From an uncultured Campylobacterales bacterium (GTDB lineage: Bacteria > Campylobacterota > Campylobacteria > Campylobacterales > Sulfurovaceae), in contig CAYUAC010000002.1 in assembly GCA_964442515.1 (NCBI GenBank), positions 1 to 41,486 of the forward strand: a DNA stretch of 41,486 nt, in the 5' to 3' direction. Positions 9,347-41,486 of this stretch are shown here, piece after piece. The translations under genes and the position numbers were made by a program. The notes beneath the pieces were generated by a model. It was not told the DNA's origin, searched no databases, and worked only from the letters and a program-made list of their open reading frames with translations. The first letter of the stretch is position 1. Each line of letters begins with the position of its first letter.

Positions 9347-10789
9347 ATGACAACATCCAAGTACCGCGTTGTCTTTATCATCACCCTGCTGCTTTTATCA
9401 CTCTCTATTGCGCTTTCGTTCTTAAACTATTCGGTATCGATGCAAAACGCAAAATCCCAGCTTAAAAACCAGTCGCTGCCCCTGTCTCTGGATAATATTT
9501 ACACCGTTATCCAAAAACACATCATCGAACCAAGCCTCATCTCTTCCATGATGGCAAACGACACCTTTTTGCATGACTGGCTGCACCACGAAAAAAGCAG
9601 AAGCGTCAACGAAGTCCGGCAATATCTGGGCGCCATCCAGCAGCGGTACGGGATGTTTAATACCTTTTTAGTCTCCGATATCACAAAAAATTATTACACG
9701 CATGAAGGCTTTGTCGAAAAGGTCAGCGCCAAACGCCCGAGAAATCAGTGGTATTACGATTTCAAACTTTCAGCCCCGACCCACGAGATCAATCTTGACC
9801 ACAATGAAAATTTTTCCAATGAACTGATCATGTTTATCAATCATAAAATCTTTGATCACGACCGCACTTATCTGGGCACCACCGGCGTTGCCATGAATCT
9901 GTCCTATATTGACGGTATTTTACGAGATTTTCGCACCAACCACAACTTTGTCGTTACATTTTTTGATAAAGAGGGCAAAGTCGTCCTGGCTGAACGCAAT
10001 GAAGATTTCACCGCCCACATCGACGATTTTGCGGTTTTGTCACAGTATAAAGATGAGATTCTTTCGCCAAAAAGCAGTATGATCGAGTACAAACAATACG
10101 GTTCCAGCCGCCTCCTGACAACCAAGTATATCCCCGAACTGAATCTTTTTTTAAGCGTTGAAGCCAAACTCTCGGATTTCACCAAAGATGTCAAAAAAGT
10201 CCTCATCTTAAATGTAGCCGTTTCAATCATGATTACGCTCATTGTCGCTTTTATCATCTATTATCTCATCAAAAACTACAGCAGAAAGCTTGAGTTTTAC
10301 TCCTCCCACGACCCGCTGACAAAGCTGCCCAACAGGCGCGACTTCGAACAAAAGTTCAAACACCATATCGCCCTGGCAAAACGCGACGCAAAACCCCATT
10401 CGATCCTGTTTTTAGATATCGATGATTTTAAAGCCATCAACGACAGTTTCGGCCACGCCACAGGCGACAGGGTTATCTGCCAGATAGCGCGCATCCTGGA
10501 AAACACGCTTCGCAAAACCGACCTGGTCGCACGGTGGGGCGGGGAGGAGTTTATCGCCGCACTCATTGACTGCGACAGCCAGATGGCGGTGCAAAACGCC
10601 CAGAAAATCCTGCAAACGATCAAACAGGATGCAATACTCGTCCAGATCACGGGCCGCCAGATTACTGCCAGCATCGGGGTAAGCACCCTGCGCGAAAGCG
10701 ATACGCTTGATTCAATCATTTCACGGGCCGATGACGCGATGTATGCAGCCAAAAACTCGGGCAAGAACAAAGTCACCTGTTATAAATGA
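9347..10789 (+). CDS. Diguanylate cyclase with N-terminal periplasmic (Cache-like) sensor domain
   Basis: Start at ATG 9347 (MTTSKYRVVFIITLLLLSLSIALS). TM, about 270-aa periplasmic region, TM, then a GGDEF domain (DIDDFKAINDSFGH, RWGGEEF). Confidence 0.9.
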   Translation: MTTSKYRVVFIITLLLLSLSIALSFLNYSVSMQNAKSQLKNQSLPLSLDNIYTVIQKHIIEPSLISSMMANDTFLHDWLHHEKSRSVNEVRQYLGAIQQRYGMFNTFLVSDITKNYYTHEGFVEKVSAKRPRNQWYYDFKLSAPTHEINLDHNENFSNELIMFINHKIFDHDRTYLGTTGVAMNLSYIDGILRDFRTNHNFVVTFFDKEGKVVLAERNEDFTAHIDDFAVLSQYKDEILSPKSSMIEYKQYGSSRLLTTKYIPELNLFLSVEAKLSDFTKDVKKVLILNVAVSIMITLIVAFIIYYLIKNYSRKLEFYSSHDPLTKLPNRRDFEQKFKHHIALAKRDAKPHSILFLDIDDFKAINDSFGHATGDRVICQIARILENTLRKTDLVARWGGEEFIAALIDCDSQMAVQNAQKILQTIKQDAILVQITGRQITASIGVSTLRESDTLDSIISRADDAMYAAKNSGKNKVTCYK

Positions 10790-10854
10790 CCGGATTTTTT
10801 TCCTGACAAAAATTTTGCTATCATAGTGGTATAGCAGCTTAAAAGGAGGCTGAT

Positions 10855-11073
10855 ATGGATATCCAAAGCAAAAGCTATGTTTTTGAATCCCCCTATCACT
10901 CCCGTATTCAGGTAGGCAGGGAAGACCCCAGCGCGTCAAAAGAGGAACAGGCAGATACGTTTACAAAGGATGCAAACCAACCCCTGCAAGAGGCCCAAAG
11001 TTTTCAAAACGCCCAGGAAAAGCCGGTGGAACCCAGGGTTACAACCGACGCTTTGCTGGATACCTACGCCTAA
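10855..11073 (+). CDS. Small hydrophilic protein of unknown function (72 aa)
   Basis: Strong AAGGAGG RBS 6 nt upstream of the ATG. Its stop at 11071-11073 lies 1 nt before the next start. Low-complexity, acidic/Gln-rich sequence. Confidence 0.5.
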   Translation: MDIQSKSYVFESPYHSRIQVGREDPSASKEEQADTFTKDANQPLQEAQSFQNAQEKPVEPRVTTDALLDTYA

Positions 11074-11074
11074 G

Positions 11075-11632
11075 ATGGGGCTGCGCTTTGAATACAGGCA
11101 CTTTGACGCAGACAGGGAGATACTGCATGTCTGGCAAAACGCTTTGCCCCGCGTATCGCACAAACATAGCAGCGAAACCTACACTCTTTTTCAAAACCGC
11201 AGCGATCTTAATATCAAAATCAGAAACCGGCGTATAGATATCAAAGAACTCCTCACGTGTAAAGAGGGGTTTCAACAGTGGCGTCCGCTGCCGCCTTTGC
11301 AAACCAGACTGCGTCTGGAAACGCTGGCTGCGGTACATGGCTTAGACTGCGATATATCCGATATACAAAGCTACCTCTATGCCTGCAAAAAACATCCAAG
11401 GGTTTCTGTCATTGATGTTGTAAAAGAGCGGACGATCTTTTATGAAAAAGGGGTTACTTTTGAATACGCGCAGGGAGTCACAGGGCAGCGCCCCTTTGCC
11501 TCCATCGCGATCGAATCAGAAGATACAGACGCGCTCAAACAAGCCTGCAGCCGTTTCAGTCTCTGCAAACACCAAAATCAGAGTTACCCTACTTTTTTGC
11601 TTTCTGACCGAGTGATTCAACCCAGCGTTTGA
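11075..11632 (+). CDS. CYTH-like (triphosphate tunnel) domain protein
   Basis: Start at ATG 11075 (MGLRFEYRHF). Alternating charged residues in predicted strands: FEYRHF, LNIKIRNRRIDIKEL, VVKERTIFYEKGVTFEYAQGV, FASIAIESED. This resembles the CYTH pattern ExExK ... KxR ... ExE. No HMM was run. Confidence 0.45.
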   Translation: MGLRFEYRHFDADREILHVWQNALPRVSHKHSSETYTLFQNRSDLNIKIRNRRIDIKELLTCKEGFQQWRPLPPLQTRLRLETLAAVHGLDCDISDIQSYLYACKKHPRVSVIDVVKERTIFYEKGVTFEYAQGVTGQRPFASIAIESEDTDALKQACSRFSLCKHQNQSYPTFLLSDRVIQPSV

Positions 11633-36649: not shown

Positions 36650-37780
36650 TTGAATTTTATTTCTAAACTCAAAAACCTTCTGCACTGGGAAGCCCAGCCA
36701 AAACCCCATATCAACTTAAATGCGCAGATATACAGTCTGCTGCAACCGTTTCGACTGCCTTTTATCCTCATTGTCCTGGTGATGATGCTTGGTACGGTAG
36801 GCTACATGGTTATTGACGATTTTCCTTTAATGGACGCCATCTATCAAACCGGTATCACCTTTACCACCGTGGGCTTTGGCGAGATCGCGCCTATCAGTGA
36901 TCAGGGGCGTGTCTTTACGGTCACGCTTATTATCATCGGTTTTTTGATCTTTACGATCTCCATCGGTATCGTCGCCGAAGCACTCAAAAGCGGCGAACTG
37001 CAAAAACTTATAAAGGAGCGCAAAATGCTCTATAAAATCGCCCGGCTCAAAAGACATTTTGTTATCTGCTACCAAAACGAATTCACCATCCAGGTAGCCG
37101 ACCAGCTCAAACAGGCCCACGTCCCCTTTGTTATCATCGATCCAGGCGACGATATAGAACATGTCGCCAAGAAACAGGGCTATACCTACTACCTGCAAGC
37201 CCATCCCCACACCAACGAAGCGATGCTCAAATCCTTTCTTTCCAGTGCCAAGGGGTTGATTACGCTGGCTGACAATATCGCCGACAATATCGCCACGATC
37301 ACTTCGGCCAGGCTGTATGAACAGGAAATCGTCAAAAAAACGCCGTTTCAGATTATTTCAAAAGCCAACAATTCCGGCGACCATGAAAAGCTTAAGAAAC
37401 TGGGAGCGGACAATACCGTCATCCCCACAAAACTGATGGCCCAGAGAGTGGGTTCTATGGCCCTGCGTCCGGATATGGTCAATATTATGGAGCGCTTCAT
37501 GTATTCCGGCGACAGCGCGCTGGATATGGAAGAGGTGGAAGTACCAAAACGAAGCTGGCTGGTCCTTAAAAAGATAAAAGATACGCACTTTCGTGATTTT
37601 ACCAACGTCTCCATCGTCGGTATCCGCAGAAAAGACGGCGTGTTCAAATCGATGCCAAGTTCCAAAGAACTCATTACCGGCCAGTGCAAACTCTTACTGA
37701 TCGGCAAAGCCGAGGGCATCAGCCTGACAAAACAGTTGATCAATAAAAACAAAAAACCAAAGGAACTCAGCTATGTTTAA
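36650..37780 (+). CDS. Potassium channel protein with RCK/TrkA domains
   Basis: TTG start. Two TMs flanking the selectivity filter TTVGFGE, then TrkA-N-like (HFVICYQNEFT) and TrkA-C-like regions. Confidence 0.85.
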   Translation: MNFISKLKNLLHWEAQPKPHINLNAQIYSLLQPFRLPFILIVLVMMLGTVGYMVIDDFPLMDAIYQTGITFTTVGFGEIAPISDQGRVFTVTLIIIGFLIFTISIGIVAEALKSGELQKLIKERKMLYKIARLKRHFVICYQNEFTIQVADQLKQAHVPFVIIDPGDDIEHVAKKQGYTYYLQAHPHTNEAMLKSFLSSAKGLITLADNIADNIATITSARLYEQEIVKKTPFQIISKANNSGDHEKLKKLGADNTVIPTKLMAQRVGSMALRPDMVNIMERFMYSGDSALDMEEVEVPKRSWLVLKKIKDTHFRDFTNVSIVGIRRKDGVFKSMPSSKELITGQCKLLLIGKAEGISLTKQLINKNKKPKELSYV

Positions 37781-38954
37781 CGCAATCCCCGTCAAAGGCG
37801 GTTTTAACTGTCTGGATGATTTTTACAGCGGCGGAATCCACGCCGGGTTCAAACCCAACGAAGAACTTGACCTTGGCTTTATCAGAAGCGACAAACCCTG
37901 TTCGCTGTCGTATCTTTTTACCAAAAACCGTTTTAAAGCCGCGCCTTTGAAACATGTTTTGCAAAACGGTTTCAAACAGTGCGATTTTATCCTGCTGAAT
38001 TCAAAAAATGCCAATGCCCTTACCGGGGAGCAGGGCTTAAAAGATGTCGATACGCTGCTTGAACATGTCCGACAAACCCACAAAGCCACAAGCCCGATCA
38101 TGAGTTCAACCGGTGTCATCGGGGTATGCTTAGATACCGACAAACTCAAAAACGGCATCAATAATCTCGATATCAATGAAAAAAACAGCCACGCCGCGGC
38201 AAAAGCGATCATGACCACCGACAGCGGACCCAAAGAGTGCGCCTATGAAGTCGAACTTGATGACGGCAGCAGCTTCAAGGTTGCGGGAATCGCCAAGGGA
38301 GCTGGGATGATCGATCCGAGTATGGCGACGATGCTCTGTTTTATCGCCACAGACGCCGATATTCCCGATGAGCATATGCACACGGCGTTAAAAGAAGCCA
38401 ACGAAATCTCGTTTAACGCAATCAGCGTGGACGGAGACCGCTCGACCAATGATTCGGTGTTTTTGATGAGTTCAAAAAGCGGAGCGTATGAACAAAAAGC
38501 GTTTCAATTTGCCCTGGACCGGGTCATGCAGGAACTGGCGCTAAAGATCGTCGGGGACGGAGAAGGGGCCACAAAACTGGCGGCATTTCACGTCAAAGGC
38601 GCAAAAGACGACTACGAGGCAAAACTGGCGGCAAAGAAACTGAGCAATTCGCTGCTGGTAAAAACCGCGCTTTTTGGCCAAGACCCAAACTGGGGCCGGA
38701 TCGCTTCTACCATCGGGGCAAGCGAAGTTACGTGCAGCGAAGAAAGTTTACGGATTTTCTTTGATGACCTGCTCATTTACGACAAGGGCAGCGTATATTT
38801 TGATCAGGAAAATGAAAACAAAGCCGCCGAAATCATGGGCCAAAGCAGCTTTAAAATCACCTGCGATCTGGGCGCCGGCGAGGGAGAGTATACCGCATAC
38901 GGATGCGACCTTGGCTATGAATACGTAAAAATCAACGCCGATTACAGAACGTAA
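37773..38954 (+). CDS. argJ: Bifunctional glutamate N-acetyltransferase / amino-acid acetyltransferase
   Basis: KGAGMIDPSMATMLCFIATDA (autoprocessing site), SVDGDRSTNDS, GQDPNWGRI, C-terminal INADYRT. Confidence 0.95.
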   Translation: MFNAIPVKGGFNCLDDFYSGGIHAGFKPNEELDLGFIRSDKPCSLSYLFTKNRFKAAPLKHVLQNGFKQCDFILLNSKNANALTGEQGLKDVDTLLEHVRQTHKATSPIMSSTGVIGVCLDTDKLKNGINNLDINEKNSHAAAKAIMTTDSGPKECAYEVELDDGSSFKVAGIAKGAGMIDPSMATMLCFIATDADIPDEHMHTALKEANEISFNAISVDGDRSTNDSVFLMSSKSGAYEQKAFQFALDRVMQELALKIVGDGEGATKLAAFHVKGAKDDYEAKLAAKKLSNSLLVKTALFGQDPNWGRIASTIGASEVTCSEESLRIFFDDLLIYDKGSVYFDQENENKAAEIMGQSSFKITCDLGAGEGEYTAYGCDLGYEYVKINADYRT

Positions 38955-38961
38955 GCTGTCA

Positions 38962-38989
38962 TTTACAATAACAAATGTTATTCTATAAA
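38962..38989 (+). promoter_or_regulatory. Sigma70-like promoter for the TnsE-like gene
   Basis: TTTACA (38962-38967), 16-nt spacer, TATAAA (38984-38989). AAAGGAG RBS 7 nt before the TTG at 39017. Confidence 0.3.
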
Positions 38990-39016
38990 GAAAAATGTTA
39001 CTAAAGGAGTGAAGAT

Positions 39017-40696
39017 TTGGCTAAAAATGACAATCAAATTCTCAACTTCTTTAATCAGCACAAAAATGAACCTTTTGAGTTTATAATTGTTACTGATATA
39101 AATCTCAAACTCCACCCAAACTACTACAAAGCAATTTTTAAAAACATTAAAACAGGTGCTTTTCACGCAACAGAAATAACTCCTGAAATGATGCGGTATA
39201 AATATAAAGTCGGTCATATATACACTAACGGTAAACATGTCGGACAAAACCCCTCTTTGCTAAAAGCTGAATTTAGAGTTAATAAAAACACTGATATTGA
39301 AGTAGACCGCCTATCTCATCATATCAACCAAGATGAAGTAAAGAATATCATTGATTACGAAGATGTATATAAATACTTATTGCGGCAATATGTACATGTA
39401 GAAAAACAAGATGAATTTACTTTGATAATCCCTTGCTATACAATTGCAAACAGGTTTTATTTTTTGTCTTCATCAATGAAACATGCAATTATGAGCACAA
39501 CACTTGAAGAACTATACTACAAAGGGAGTTTTCATCATGATATTAATAAAAAAGGTGAAACTATTGTAAAGCTTCACATTAAAAAGAAAGCAGGGAAAAA
39601 AGACCTGCCGTTTATATGCCGTTTTGCAGGCAGTACTTTTGCACAAAATAGGCTCAAATACCTCAATGAACAAAAATCATTGAGTGAGAATAGAGAATAC
39701 CAACCGATAAAAGCACAGTTTCCAGTTAGAAACTCTTTTGATATATATGCCTCATATATTTATGTAGGTGATGATGAAAGAGGCGAGCCAAAGTATTTGG
39801 TACTCAATATTCACTCAGACAACTCGCCGCTTGGTTTTAGTAAAATTTATTATAAGCAATATAGTGCAAAACAAGATCCAAAAGAGATAGAACCAGGTCA
39901 TTATGACATCCCTCCCAGACCAAAAAATAAATTTAAGAAAAAAAAGCCTAAACGAACAAATACGATTTATACAGGAATACCTTCTAGTGAATACCTAAGA
40001 TATACGCTTCATACTCGTGAAGAGGAATATTACAAAAATCATGTATCTATATATGGATCAACTATTCACGGGGAAGGCGAAAGTAACTCAGAATTAAAAG
40101 TCGAAAGTTCTGAAAACAAAGTTGGAGGTAGCTTTGAACCTCCTTCAAGCAATGGAGATGAAAACTTAGGCGAAGTTATAACTTCAAATGATGTAGACGG
40201 AAAAGACAAAGAAAAGAAGATTTTTAACCTAAACAACTTTAACCAGTTCTATGAAGCACTGTTAAGCTATGCCTATGTAGATGGCTCTGAGCTTTTTGGA
40301 CCCTTTGAACTGAATAAAATAAGAAATGACAAACGAAAGTCTGTCAAATCAAAATCTATCTTGTTTGGAAATGAAAATGATCCAAGGCGATTTCTTTTTG
40401 GAATACTGTCTTATAACAAAAAAATGATCTATATAGTTGAAATAGAACAGGATTTAACCTGGGGACCATCTACATGGATATTTTTTACAGATGAGAATAC
40501 TCAACAATATTCTGAAGATGATATGAAAAAAATCATAGAACATTACATTCAAAAAAATTTGAAGTATACAAAGCTTACTGATTACGTAAAAAATAACTAT
40601 TCACTTTCTTTTGCTCAAAAAGAACATAGAAATGGTGATATTGATGATGATAGTGTTGAAAGATGGTGTGAGAGTGTTTTGAGGAAAGTTACATAA
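39017..40696 (+). CDS. TnsE-like protein (Tn7 transposition target-selector family), orphan arrangement
   Basis: 559 aa. Compared with Tn7 TnsE recalled from memory, it matches in three regions. First, LIIPCYTIANRFYFLSSSMKHAIMSTTLEELY versus YHIPQLELARSLFLINSYFCRSCLSSTALQQEF. Second, a charged low-complexity linker, then NFNQFYEALLS versus FANRFAAFDELLS and PRRFLFGILSYNKKMIYIVEIEQD versus PRVIKAVGVQRNGSEFVLLEVDASD. Third, the C-terminal SVERWCESVLRKV versus MEGWAERVVREQF. The size is similar (559 versus ~538 aa). Not verified by search. Confidence 0.45.
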   Translation: MAKNDNQILNFFNQHKNEPFEFIIVTDINLKLHPNYYKAIFKNIKTGAFHATEITPEMMRYKYKVGHIYTNGKHVGQNPSLLKAEFRVNKNTDIEVDRLSHHINQDEVKNIIDYEDVYKYLLRQYVHVEKQDEFTLIIPCYTIANRFYFLSSSMKHAIMSTTLEELYYKGSFHHDINKKGETIVKLHIKKKAGKKDLPFICRFAGSTFAQNRLKYLNEQKSLSENREYQPIKAQFPVRNSFDIYASYIYVGDDERGEPKYLVLNIHSDNSPLGFSKIYYKQYSAKQDPKEIEPGHYDIPPRPKNKFKKKKPKRTNTIYTGIPSSEYLRYTLHTREEEYYKNHVSIYGSTIHGEGESNSELKVESSENKVGGSFEPPSSNGDENLGEVITSNDVDGKDKEKKIFNLNNFNQFYEALLSYAYVDGSELFGPFELNKIRNDKRKSVKSKSILFGNENDPRRFLFGILSYNKKMIYIVEIEQDLTWGPSTWIFFTDENTQQYSEDDMKKIIEHYIQKNLKYTKLTDYVKNNYSLSFAQKEHRNGDIDDDSVERWCESVLRKVT

Positions 40697-40737
40697 TATT
40701 CTAAAGAATTTTAATATTATCTACTTTAATGATATAT

Positions 40738-41486
40738 TTATTCAGCGAACCATTCACGCATCTTATCATACTCTAATGAATATTTATTAATTCTGAAAAT
40801 TCCAATACTTGACTGGCTAGAATAATGAGATGTAAAAGGATAGCGGAAATGAATTGATATTCCTGCGTTTGTAAAAAACGTATTTTCACACATATAAAAG
40901 ATTAAGCTACCAAGAGCTTGAGCTTTAGTGGCCAGAGATGCAATATATATATTTCTTATATTAGAATGTATTTTTAAATATGCATGTATATAGTTTGAAA
41001 TGACTTTTGCAGTTTCAAAAGGATTATTAGCTGGAGCAGTTAAAGGTTCAAGAGTATGATCAATTTTTAGTGATGTTTGAGCTTTTTCAATATTGATTAA
41101 ATTTTCTTGATACATAATTGGCTGTAGGGCAGGATAGCCAATCAAAACAGTTGTTTCATTTACTTGAATATCTTGAAGCACACTTTTTACTAATCGTGAA
41201 TCATATCCAGCATTGACTATGAATAAATCATCTGAAGAAGGTTCAAAGTACTCTTGATCAATCATCATAATGTTTCTATTAATTAAAATATCCTTCTGAG
41301 CAAATTCTGTATTAGATGATTCTTTATATGCTTTCGGTTCAGAATAAATGATATCAATATTGGTAAATTTTAAATGTTTTAGATAAGGCAATAAAAATAT
41401 CATATATGGTTTTATGAAGCCAGAAATATCAATACATATAGACATTTCTGGAGTTAATTTTGCATACTTTAAGAATTCAAGTATAT
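40738..41486 (-). CDS. Hypothetical alpha/beta (Rossmann/CARF-like) protein, possibly 5'-truncated by the window edge
   Basis: The tracked ATG is at 41445, but the same frame stays open to 41486 (ILEFLKYAKLTPE before the Met). Alternating strand/helix pattern: ICIDISGF..., IDIIYSEP, LFIVNAGYD, TVLIGYPA, NIYIASLATKAQALG. This is reminiscent of Csa3/CARF-type ligand-binding folds. AT-rich. Confidence 0.55.
   Translation of the reverse strand, partial: ILEFLKYAKLTPEMSICIDISGFIKPYMIFLLPYLKHLKFTNIDIIYSEPKAYKESSNTEFAQKDILINRNIMMIDQEYFEPSSDDLFIVNAGYDSRLVKSVLQDIQVNETTVLIGYPALQPIMYQENLINIEKAQTSLKIDHTLEPLTAPANNPFETAKVISNYIHAYLKIHSNIRNIYIASLATKAQALGSLIFYMCENTFFTNAGISIHFRYPFTSHYSSQSSIGIFRINKYSLEYDKMREWFAE

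Follow-up and report, generated by a model that had tools for sequence, protein, structure and literature searches.

What kind of protein is encoded by a reading frame that runs off the end of its contig, and why does it face a transposition-type gene there? This question is raised by one end of contig CAYUAC010000002.1 (assembly GCA_964442515.1) from an uncultured Campylobacterales bacterium of the Sulfurovaceae. The whole contig, with its 41,486 nucleotides (nt), was analysed and is referred to here as the window. The frame lies on the minus strand and ends at position 40738. A first-pass annotation, made from the letters alone, had described it as a Rossmann-type protein resembling the CARF sensor domains. 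The analysis reported here indicates that it very probably represents the C-terminal 248 residues of a stand-alone CARF6-family protein of about 340 amino acids, whose gene is cut by a low-coverage contig end. In related organisms, such a gene belongs to a cassette with a DNA methyltransferase, a phosphoribosyltransferase (PRTase) and an ORC/Cdc6-like AAA+ ATPase. We regard it as rather probable that the window holds the truncated sensor gene of a cassette of this kind, which most likely serves in defence against, or exclusion of, foreign DNA.

The reading frame at the contig edge

In the list of open reading frames (ORFs), the frame is open to the end of the window (40738..41484, 248 amino acids), as the first-pass annotation had noticed, and its ATG-started version covers 40738..41445 (235 amino acids). 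The open-frame translation starts ILEFLKYAKLTPE-MSICIDISGF. The feature at 40738..41484 on the minus strand is thus the 3' 747 nt of a CARF6-family gene (248 codons and the stop codon at 40738-40740), as defined by its match to the PADLOC model PDLC01914 and by alignment to its closest relative. This relative, P0001, is a protein of 339 amino acids with 74% identity (E 2.6e-115), and the window fragment aligns to its residues 94-339. Therefore, about 93 N-terminal residues, or about 280 nt, are missing. The earlier expectation that the real protein is larger and begins beyond the window was correct. It had further allowed for an N-terminal domain there; the missing part belongs to the sensor itself, of whose first Rossmann-like lobe it forms the greater portion, and it is not an effector domain. 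A stop just past the edge combined with a housekeeping fold, which would have spoken for an unrelated gene, was not found.

The ATG chosen by the ORF track (41443..41445, minus strand) is an internal methionine. It is residue 14 of the fragment and aligns with the internal MSLCIDISGF of P0001, and the 15 nt that precede it (AAATTAACTCCAGAA) contain no Shine-Dalgarno-like purine run. Among 288 candidates, 74 proteins were found to be homologous at E<=0.001. Their sizes are 136-434 amino acids, and the full-length relatives have 308-352.

The frame is open at the edge because the assembly, which consists of 203 contigs and is 97.8% complete, stops there, and not for a biological cause. The missing 5' part is on no other contig of this assembly, as a full-length relative matches one place only, even at E<=10. 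A public run, X1, covers the island to 0.74, measured in sampled words. The Logan contigs of X1 across the gene are short (166-684 nt) and of low depth (1.7-5.6), which is the reason for the break of the contig at this gene. No X1 contig crosses the window end, where the depth is 1.7-3.9. Metagenome contigs were also searched for close relatives. With the fragment as query, 48 pattern matches and no relatives were obtained, and a second scan, from alignment A3, gave nine loci with 45-53% identity, none of them closer than P0001.

CARF identity and fold

All eight matches of the fragment in PADLOC-DB are CARF6 models. The best is PDLC01914 (E 1.5e-63), in which fragment residues 11-239 align with profile positions 92-310 of 311. 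Similarly, the full-length CARF6 protein of locus L003, the nearest relative with a complete cassette, matches the CARF6 profile over positions 3-310 (E 2.2e-89). Pfam gave no family for the fragment, NCBIfam gave only chance-level matches to pantothenate kinases (E 0.023), and a search of PDB sequences with the CARF6 family profile gave no match at E<=10. CARF6 and its partner families are already catalogued (PADLOC CARF6; Pfam PF24389 and PF24390), and the window gene is a further, truncated member. The CARF6 clade of PADLOC-DB v2.0.0 (PDLC01910-01923, 'CARF6--CARF_CARF_CARF') has the same length (profile 311) and the same stand-alone architecture; the window protein differs from it only in the contig-end cut and in its Tn7-like carrier. 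These PADLOC models are, we take it, derived from the 2020 CARF classification.

The fold was predicted with AlphaFold2 for P0001, with 36 aligned relatives, and the resulting model has a predicted local distance difference test score (pLDDT) of 90.3 and a predicted template-modelling score (pTM) of 0.92. It was compared with 48,161 PDB representatives by VIA-align, a structure search that is independent of Foldseek, and CARF or SAVED proteins occupy 20 of the 26 top rows. The strongest match is Can1 (6sce), with Z 12.6 and a root-mean-square deviation (rmsd) of 3.6 over 219 aligned residues (model 31-315). It is followed by Csm6 of T. thermophilus (TtCsm6, 8jbc; Z 12.4, rmsd 2.5, 120 aligned residues, model 171-312), Card1 (6wxw, Z 11.2), three entries of Can2 (Z 10.9 for 8bao, then 10.8 and 10.5), Cam1 (Z 10.0) and Csa3 (6wxq, Z 9.8). 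The SAVED domains of Cap5, Cap4 and Cap14 are matched over model residues of about 29-312 with Z 8.4-9.4 and rmsd 4.3-5.3, the highest value belonging to Cap5 (Z 9.4 over 29-311). The top Foldseek ranks on the same model are tandem-Rossmann proteins, namely KaiC, UspE and the C-terminal domain of NKCC1, with a template-modelling score (TM) of about 0.2 and an rmsd of about 20. They were set aside as two-lobe look-alikes, and preference was given to the CARF and SAVED rows and to the ranking by VIA-align.

A CARF domain is defined by a six-stranded Rossmann-like core, in which strands 5 and 6 form a hairpin, and by a conserved basic residue after strand 4 (PMC4012209). In the P0001 model, the strands of the C-lobe are 180-184, 203-209, 241-243 and 271-276, and then 303-311 and 324-331, and this modelled lobe shows the six-stranded core with the hairpin of the last two strands. 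It superimposes on known CARF domains with Z up to 12.4 and rmsd 2.3-2.9 over 108-126 residues. The corresponding part of the window gene, the strand-helix repeats of fragment residues 78-219 (model 171-312), is at 40828..41253 on the minus strand, with strands 5 and 6 after it. The basic residue directly after strand 4 is also present. It is the lysine of Thr186-Lys187, which is encoded by ACT AAA at 40924..40929 (minus strand) in the segment LATKAQALG. This T-K pair (model T279-K280) is invariant in alignments A1 (13 sequences) and A2 (36 sequences) and at least 90% conserved in A5. The stretch NIYIASLATKAQALG, confirmed at fragment residues 178-192, had been likened by the first-pass annotation to a strand-loop-helix ligand site, and the position of the T-K pair bears this out. 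The general call of a CARF-like Rossmann protein likewise stands, since the profile searches (PADLOC CARF6) and the structure prediction (Can1, Csm6, Card1, Can2 and Csa3) both point to CARF.

Upstream of the C-terminal domain lies a middle Rossmann-like segment, fragment residues 16-77 (model 109-170; 41254..41439, minus strand), as delimited by alignments and secondary structure. It carries, at the ends of strands, the invariant CID..G (fragment residues 17-22) and Y..EP (47-50). In the P0001 model, the family-invariant residues other than T-K, that is CID..G, Y.EP, GYD, P and PANNPF, are all placed where a strand ends or a helix begins. The last residue of C-lobe strand 1 is an asparagine (N91 in the window), followed by A-G-Y-D-S; this residue is polar but is not the serine or threonine typical of CARF domains. 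The glycine after strand 1 is invariant, and N91 is invariant only in the close clade. Judged on the model, the last 140 or so residues form a canonical CARF domain, and the whole chain resembles the two-lobed single-chain sensors, Can1 and SAVED.

A check for fused effector domains, proposed earlier, found no fused forms of 595-2000 amino acids, which is weak evidence. The only fusion among the best 150 of 1,589 profile matches is P0328 (787 amino acids), in which NACHT is joined to the CARF6 middle and C-lobes.

A four-gene cassette in relatives

The partners of the CARF6 gene were sought in 65 loci from species-representative genomes and nine from metagenomes, which were compared by ORF clustering and profile searches. 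A recurrent order was observed on one strand: a DNA methyltransferase (about 459 amino acids), PRTase-CE (about 330), the ORC/Cdc6-like AAA+ ATPase (about 680) and CARF6 (about 320), which closes a tightly packed operon. All four families are present in 57 of the 74 loci, which is 57 of the 60 whose upstream DNA is long enough; of the 17 incomplete loci, 14 are limited by short upstream DNA. The exact same-strand order is found in 49 loci of the genome set, and further loci have split ORFs. The gaps between the cassette genes are mostly -4 to +15 nt, and in many loci the ATPase and CARF6 genes share 1-4 nt.

The families are clearest in L003. Its methyltransferase (N6_N4_Mtase, 3e-17; PADLOC MTase_II, 7e-52) is of the amino-DNA-methyltransferase type, its PRTase matches PRTase-CE (PF24390, 9e-54), and its ATPase matches ORC-CDC6-like (PF24389, 8e-81). 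The catalytic motifs of the cassette, namely Walker A and B, the DD..GSG loop of the PRTase and the DPFxGxGT and SPPY motifs of the methyltransferase, are kept in at least 85% of 54-63 sequences. The cassette PRTase also matches the 'PRTase_III-A' models that PADLOC holds for retrons (6.7e-36). The functional partners of the window gene, that is the ATPase, the PRTase and the methylase, would lie beyond the contig edge. A literature search returned nothing describing this combination of genes, which may have been described in the 2020 CARF classification.

A separate observation concerns P0297, a protein of 344 amino acids. It joins an N-terminal methylase fragment (UPF0020, 56-102) to the C-terminal 230 residues of CARF6, the arrangement that a deletion of the cassette's inner genes would leave.

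Predicted binding of CARF6 to the ATPase

A complex of the L003 ATPase (residues 1-665) with the L003 CARF6 protein was predicted with ESMFold2, along with three controls. The pair reached a score of 0.76 (runs of 0.73, 0.76 and 0.77), and the best control reached 0.00. The mark of 0.76 is attained by 116 of 157 solved complexes and by 2 of 215 mismatched pairs, counts that are only a rough reference for this complex because custom alignments were used. The runs share at least 90% of their contacts, with 97-110 contacts and a partner pLDDT of at least 79. On the CARF6 side, the prediction is unlikely to repeat a complex already solved, because CARF6 has no PDB relative by sequence.

On the ATPase, the predicted interface is made up of the region 176-193, which includes the conserved D183, and of a conserved, family-specific NPF segment at the N-terminus (L003 numbering). 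On CARF6, it comprises residues 116-123, 153-169 and 182-196, again in L003 numbering, which is offset by about 86 from that of the window fragment. With the first two of these stretches, the middle Rossmann-like segment provides much of the predicted contact surface for the ATPase, and most of the CARF6 contacts are retained in the window part. Further, the L003 ATPase is matched (5.9e-8) by the PADLOC model 'CARF6--CARF_STK_AAA', which represents a fusion of CARF6, kinase and AAA. Together, the gene overlap, the fusion forms and the complex prediction support the binding of CARF6 to the ORC/Cdc6-like ATPase.

Proposed mechanism and competing explanations

On these findings, a mechanism can be proposed. 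CARF6 would be the ligand-sensing subunit of the cassette and would bind a nucleotide-type small molecule at its conserved strand-end face (CID..G, Y.EP, GYD, PANNPF and TK). It would dock on the N-terminal/ATPase region of the ORC/Cdc6-like ATPase, which in turn would gate the PRTase, the sole candidate effector. The methylase may mark self DNA. The ligand would not be a product of Cas10 or of a CD-NTase; its more likely source would be the cassette PRTase, the invader or the pyrimidine deoxynucleotide pool. Transposons and plasmids would spread the cassette between hosts. The chance that this sensor-ATPase-PRTase mechanism is correct seems to us about even.

The absence of a conventional ligand source is part of this proposal. 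No cyclase cluster recurs in the 65 neighbourhoods of +/-10 kb. Three of the five large carrier genomes have no above-cut-off SMODS or Csm1-type Cas10, and in the other two such genes are megabases away; the search did not extend to Cmr2 and mCpol. The association with Cas10 or another oligonucleotide cyclase that is typical of CARF proteins was, therefore, not found. The family is that of a stand-alone CARF sensor whose partners are an ORC/Cdc6-like ATPase, a PRTase and a DNA methylase and which is not tied to Cas10 or to the anti-phage signalling system based on cyclic oligonucleotides (CBASS).

Several observations weigh against a defence cassette of this design and against the place of the window gene in it. 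The partners are absent from three loci in spite of ample upstream DNA, L036 and L065 being without methylase and PRTase, and L060 without any of them. Searches with PF24389 and PF24390 detected no cassette partner in the assembly of the window itself. The cassette contains no nuclease, and no source of a ligand was found. The literature search, which did not take in the 2020 CARF classification, found no experimental study on any cassette member. The structure described above comes from a 74%-identical relative and not from the window protein itself, and the modelled complex is a 48%-identical pair from custom alignments, which supports binding without demonstrating it. Lastly, a housekeeping gene of the thymidylate (dTMP) pathway adjoins the cassette, operon-tight, in 21 of the 65 loci: thyA (PF00303, 1e-128), the non-homologous thyX (PF02511) or the dUTPase gene, dut (PF00692). 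In three of the five genomes tested, the dUTPase adjacent to the cassette is the sole copy.

These thy and dut neighbours are found in at least eight phyla and are often co-directional with the cassette, with gaps of 2-9 nt or overlaps (for example L034:4451-5245, L005:4465-5409 and L033:10682-11128). The link was unexpected and points to pyrimidine deoxynucleotide metabolism; a role in nucleotide metabolism or in DNA modification agrees with it no less than defence does, and it is the chief argument for a non-immune reading. The cassette could then be read not as an immune system but as a module tied to thymidylate synthesis. Its PRTase would supply an unusual pyrimidine nucleotide by synthesis or salvage, its methylase would modify DNA, and CARF6 would sense the dUMP/dTMP/dUTP pool and control the module by way of the ATPase. 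The lack of a nuclease speaks for it, as does the gene of the phosphoribosylanthranilate (PRA) isomerase family that comes after CARF6 in L084 (PF00697, 5e-27). We nevertheless think such a module unlikely. The cassette is patchy and mobile in its distribution, being carried as Tn7-like cargo and on conjugative plasmids and giving a single marginal match in 200 relatives of the host family. It has defence genes as neighbours, and the clade of the window itself is without a thy or dut link. In addition, relatives of PRTase-CE act as defence effectors. A role of the cassette in defence rather than in metabolism is likely.

A bolder form of the defence reading would bring the two sets of observations together as a CARF-gated immunity that is independent of cyclases. 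CARF6 might sense a mononucleotide-type signal, either the PRTase product or a metabolite of the dUMP/dUTP/dTMP pathway perturbed by infection, and might then, itself bound to the ATPase, license the PRTase to poison nucleotide metabolism, while the methylase spares self DNA. We advance this form tentatively and do not expect it to prove right. If true, no CARF sensor before CARF6 would have been shown to act apart from signalling by cyclic oligonucleotides, and the joining of thyA, thyX and dut to the operon in many phyla would be explained. In any case, the predicted ATPase-CARF6 interface, the lack of a linked cyclase and the recurrent tie to three dTMP-pathway genes jointly bear on what CARF domains sense without a cyclic-oligonucleotide synthase.

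The missing cyclase and the large predicted ATPase interface, with its 97-110 contacts, would also suit a CARF6 that binds no ligand at all. It would then be an adaptor, a degenerate CARF that scaffolds the ATPase, and sensing would be done by the ATPase or by the methylase on DNA, as in systems of the bacteriophage exclusion (BREX) type that centre on ORC/Cdc6-type ATPases. BrxC of BREX, an ATPase of the ORC/Cdc6 clade, is proposed to be a scaffold (PMC12839542). A scaffold, however, would have no need of the invariant residues on the classical Rossmannoid ligand face, the CARF-defining lysine among them, and we judge a ligand-free CARF6 to be distinctly unlikely.

Comparison with known defence systems

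The CARF6 sensor and its cassette share parts with several known systems. Among the cyclic oligoadenylate (cOA) sensors of type III CRISPR systems (Can1, Csm6, Card1, Can2, Cam1 and Csa3), the likeness is in the CARF fold (Z 9.8-12.6) and in the basic residue after strand 4. Can1 also has two lobes in one chain, as in the CARF6 protein. Unlike these sensors, CARF6 has no fused nuclease, HEPN, helix-turn-helix or membrane effector, its partner is the ORC/Cdc6-like ATPase, and it is without linkage to Cas10 or CRISPR and without a sequence relative in the PDB.

The SAVED part of CBASS effectors (Cap4, Cap5, Cap14 and CalpL) consists of two fused CARF-like lobes in a single chain, which the P0001 model resembles over its residues 29-312 with Z 6.7-9.4 and a Foldseek probability of 0.96-0.99. 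Its scores are, however, lower than those of the single-lobe CARF matches (rmsd 4.2-5.3), and CARF6 has neither a CD-NTase linkage nor a fused effector.

In BREX, a DNA methyltransferase and an ORC/Cdc6-clade ATPase, BrxC, are combined without a restriction nuclease, as in the cassette. The cassette differs in having no PglZ, BrxA, BrxB or BrxL, in an ATPase of about 680 and not 1200-1300 amino acids, and in having a PRTase and a CARF protein. A PRTase, in the cassette the candidate effector, is shared with the type III-A retrons (Retron-Eco11) and with ShosTA, to judge from the PRTase_III-A and PRTase-CE matches. PRTase-like effectors are described as acting in the defence by both of these systems. 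The cassette, in contrast, is without reverse transcriptase, non-coding RNA and DprA-like antitoxin, and its PRTase is partnered with the ATPase, CARF and methylase.

Distribution, mobility and neighbours

A profile search of 1.84 billion representatives gave 1,589 proteins at E<=0.001, 679 at E<=1e-10 and 231 at E<=1e-30. The CARF6 family is spread across more than a dozen phyla and is of modest size, with 231 representative clusters at the last threshold. In the databases, its members are named hypothetical, apart from one UniRef entry, 'CRISPR-associated protein'. Within the host family, one of 200 sampled genomes besides that of the window has a match, and this is marginal (E 7.7e-4).

Homologues were found on eight plasmids, five of them conjugative. 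None was found in 50,697 phage records, a result that counts neither for nor against the proposed role. The defence-type neighbours include a GmrSD type IV restriction enzyme, an AAA_15/AbiEii-like ATPase, a DUF4365 protein and a SIR2-family protein (at L003:15491-17236; L086:2665-4023; L036:10654-11613; and 8342-9913 of L090, plasmid NZ_CP140809.1). The cargo of Tn7-like transposons is known to be rich in defence systems, as Benler et al. 2021 (PMC8649781) report.

The Tn7-like carrier

The gene that converges on the CARF6 gene is located at 39017..40696 on the plus strand. It encodes 559 amino acids from a TTG start, with AAAGGAG 7 nt upstream, and it reads inward from a transposon end. The match of its product to Pfam TnsE_C is below the cut-off (E 0.0017). 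Most of its 125 homologues are from Sulfurimonas, Sulfuricurvum and Arcobacter; one homologue is named TnsE by NCBI and several carry PF18623. The structural model (pLDDT 73.7) gives TnsE C-terminal domains as all of its top seven Foldseek PDB matches, with probability 1.00, TM on target of 0.53-0.70 and E 1.3e-3 to 5.3e-3; at the eighth match, the probability drops to 0.10. The neighbour is a true TnsE homologue, the target selector of the Tn7 family. The first-pass annotation had seen a transposition-type protein in an acquired island, which is accurate, and had paired it with the sensor in the manner of a defence island. The adjacency is real, but TnsE is the carrier and not a functional partner. 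The convergent stops of the two genes are separated by a spacer of 41 nt (40697..40737), in which no terminator-like hairpin is predicted.

The island begins with a Tn7-family end at 38957..39016 (plus strand), which starts with the terminal TGTCATTTAC and is recognised from the sequence, the run contigs and the related locus L076. Two direct AAATGTTAY repeats, 20 nt apart (38973-38981 and 38993-39001), lie between the terminus and the start of the TnsE-like gene and are candidate TnsB sites. The end is located 2 nt past the stop of the host gene argJ (37773..38954, plus strand; PF01960, E 2.3e-128), which is directly upstream of the insertion, and the GC content falls from about 0.46-0.52 to about 0.30 after argJ. 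The five bases TAAGC (38952..38956, plus strand) abut the end and overlap the argJ stop, in the position expected of a 5-bp target-site duplication. By analogy with L076, they would be one copy of the duplication, and the second copy would be expected at the far end. A 369-nt contig of X1 spans 38667-39035 with no differences, and in the sister runs X2 and X3, contigs agree with the argJ end as far as 38956 and 38955, beyond which they run on into unrelated sequence. The island is real because the junction is bridged by the X1 contig and the sister-run contigs diverge at the same point.

In L076, a relative from the same family, a mini-element of about 410 bp (1284-1691), a small derivative of the transposon family of the window, has inverted TGTCATTTACAAGAA termini and a 5-bp direct repeat, CAGGG, on both sides. 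Its terminus is identical to the window terminus TGTCATTTAC, and one arm stays collinear with the window up to about codon 45 of the TnsE-like gene, of which the mini-element keeps no more than these codons. Terminal inverted repeats of the TGT... type with a 5-bp duplication, the signature of the Tn7 family, are thus seen by way of L076; in the window, one end is visible. 

In the nearest relatives, the cassette is cargo of such a transposon, and the complete layout is found in L003. Host mnmG is followed there by the TnsE-like gene, a small EEP-family ORF, the methylase-PRTase-ATPase-CARF6 cassette and then, on the opposite strand, TniQ (4e-22), TniB/TnsC (2e-51), TnsB (Mu-transpos_C, rve) and TnsA (4e-10), after which comes GmrSD. 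L084 and L085 have similar layouts, and in L083 the TnsE gene is convergent with CARF6, as in the window. By blastp and jackhmmer, the TnsE-like neighbour is present in L003, L083, L084 and L085. L003, L084 and L085 have the Tn7 core genes beside the cassette, and L080 and L086 have some of them. In all, six of the 74 loci show Tn7 core or TnsE-like genes of this kind, a link limited to a low-GC clade. The element ends of L003, L084 and L085 bear another repeat, TTTGATAAT, in this position and cannot be aligned with the window end. With the Tn7-like transposons known to carry defence cargo (PMC8649781), these elements share TnsA, TnsB, TniB/TnsC, TniQ, a TnsE homologue, TGT termini, the 5-bp duplication and cargo of a defence type. 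They differ in that TnsE is at the opposite end from tnsABC-tniQ and reads inward about 50-60 nt from the terminus, and the window shows this end only. In the assembly of the window, which is broken at this element, there is no TnsA and only an unspecific TniB match.

The window gene is, then, carried by a Tn7-like transposon that has inserted directly behind argJ. What the analysis does for the window is mostly to clarify: the odd open frame turns out to be an assembly-truncated cargo gene. That the window copy is a dead remnant, truncated cargo of a decayed transposon with an open frame but no present function, is very improbable: the partner genes and TnsA are missing from the 97.8%-complete assembly, two relatives have TnsE-like genes without tnsABC, and L076 holds a mini-element remnant, but the window copy has 248 uninterrupted codons and retains every family-invariant residue, the short, shallow Logan contigs account for the break, and low-GC cargo contigs would easily be dropped from a bin of 48% GC.

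Some minor observations were made around the carrier. The gene 5' of argJ (36650-37780) encodes a TrkA-N/TrkA-C-gated ion channel (Ion_trans_2) and represents ordinary host context of normal GC. Repeats between 38800 and 41486 amount to short, AT-rich matches without evident significance. A promoter scan was at the level of shuffled sequence (13 found against a mean of 14.4), and three terminator-like sites are all inside the TnsE-like gene. In L084, the PRA-isomerase-family gene (10767-11432) sits within the transposon, with CARF6 on one side and TniQ or TnsE on the other, and so places a further enzyme of phosphoribosyl metabolites next to the PRTase cassette. L085 (8285-8962) and L083 (764-1429) have ORFs of equal size at this position; the profile scan covered the L084 copy only.

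In two loci of the same family, L079 (9392-12151) and L078 (9469-12001), a TnsE-like gene without tnsABC nearby is directly upstream of dprA. L079 has a 115-amino-acid 5' fragment of dprA, then the TnsE-like gene, and then the full dprA, as if an insertion had duplicated the start of the gene. Next come ShlB and a giant two-partner secretion (TPS) haemagglutinin-repeat gene with a PT-VENN domain.

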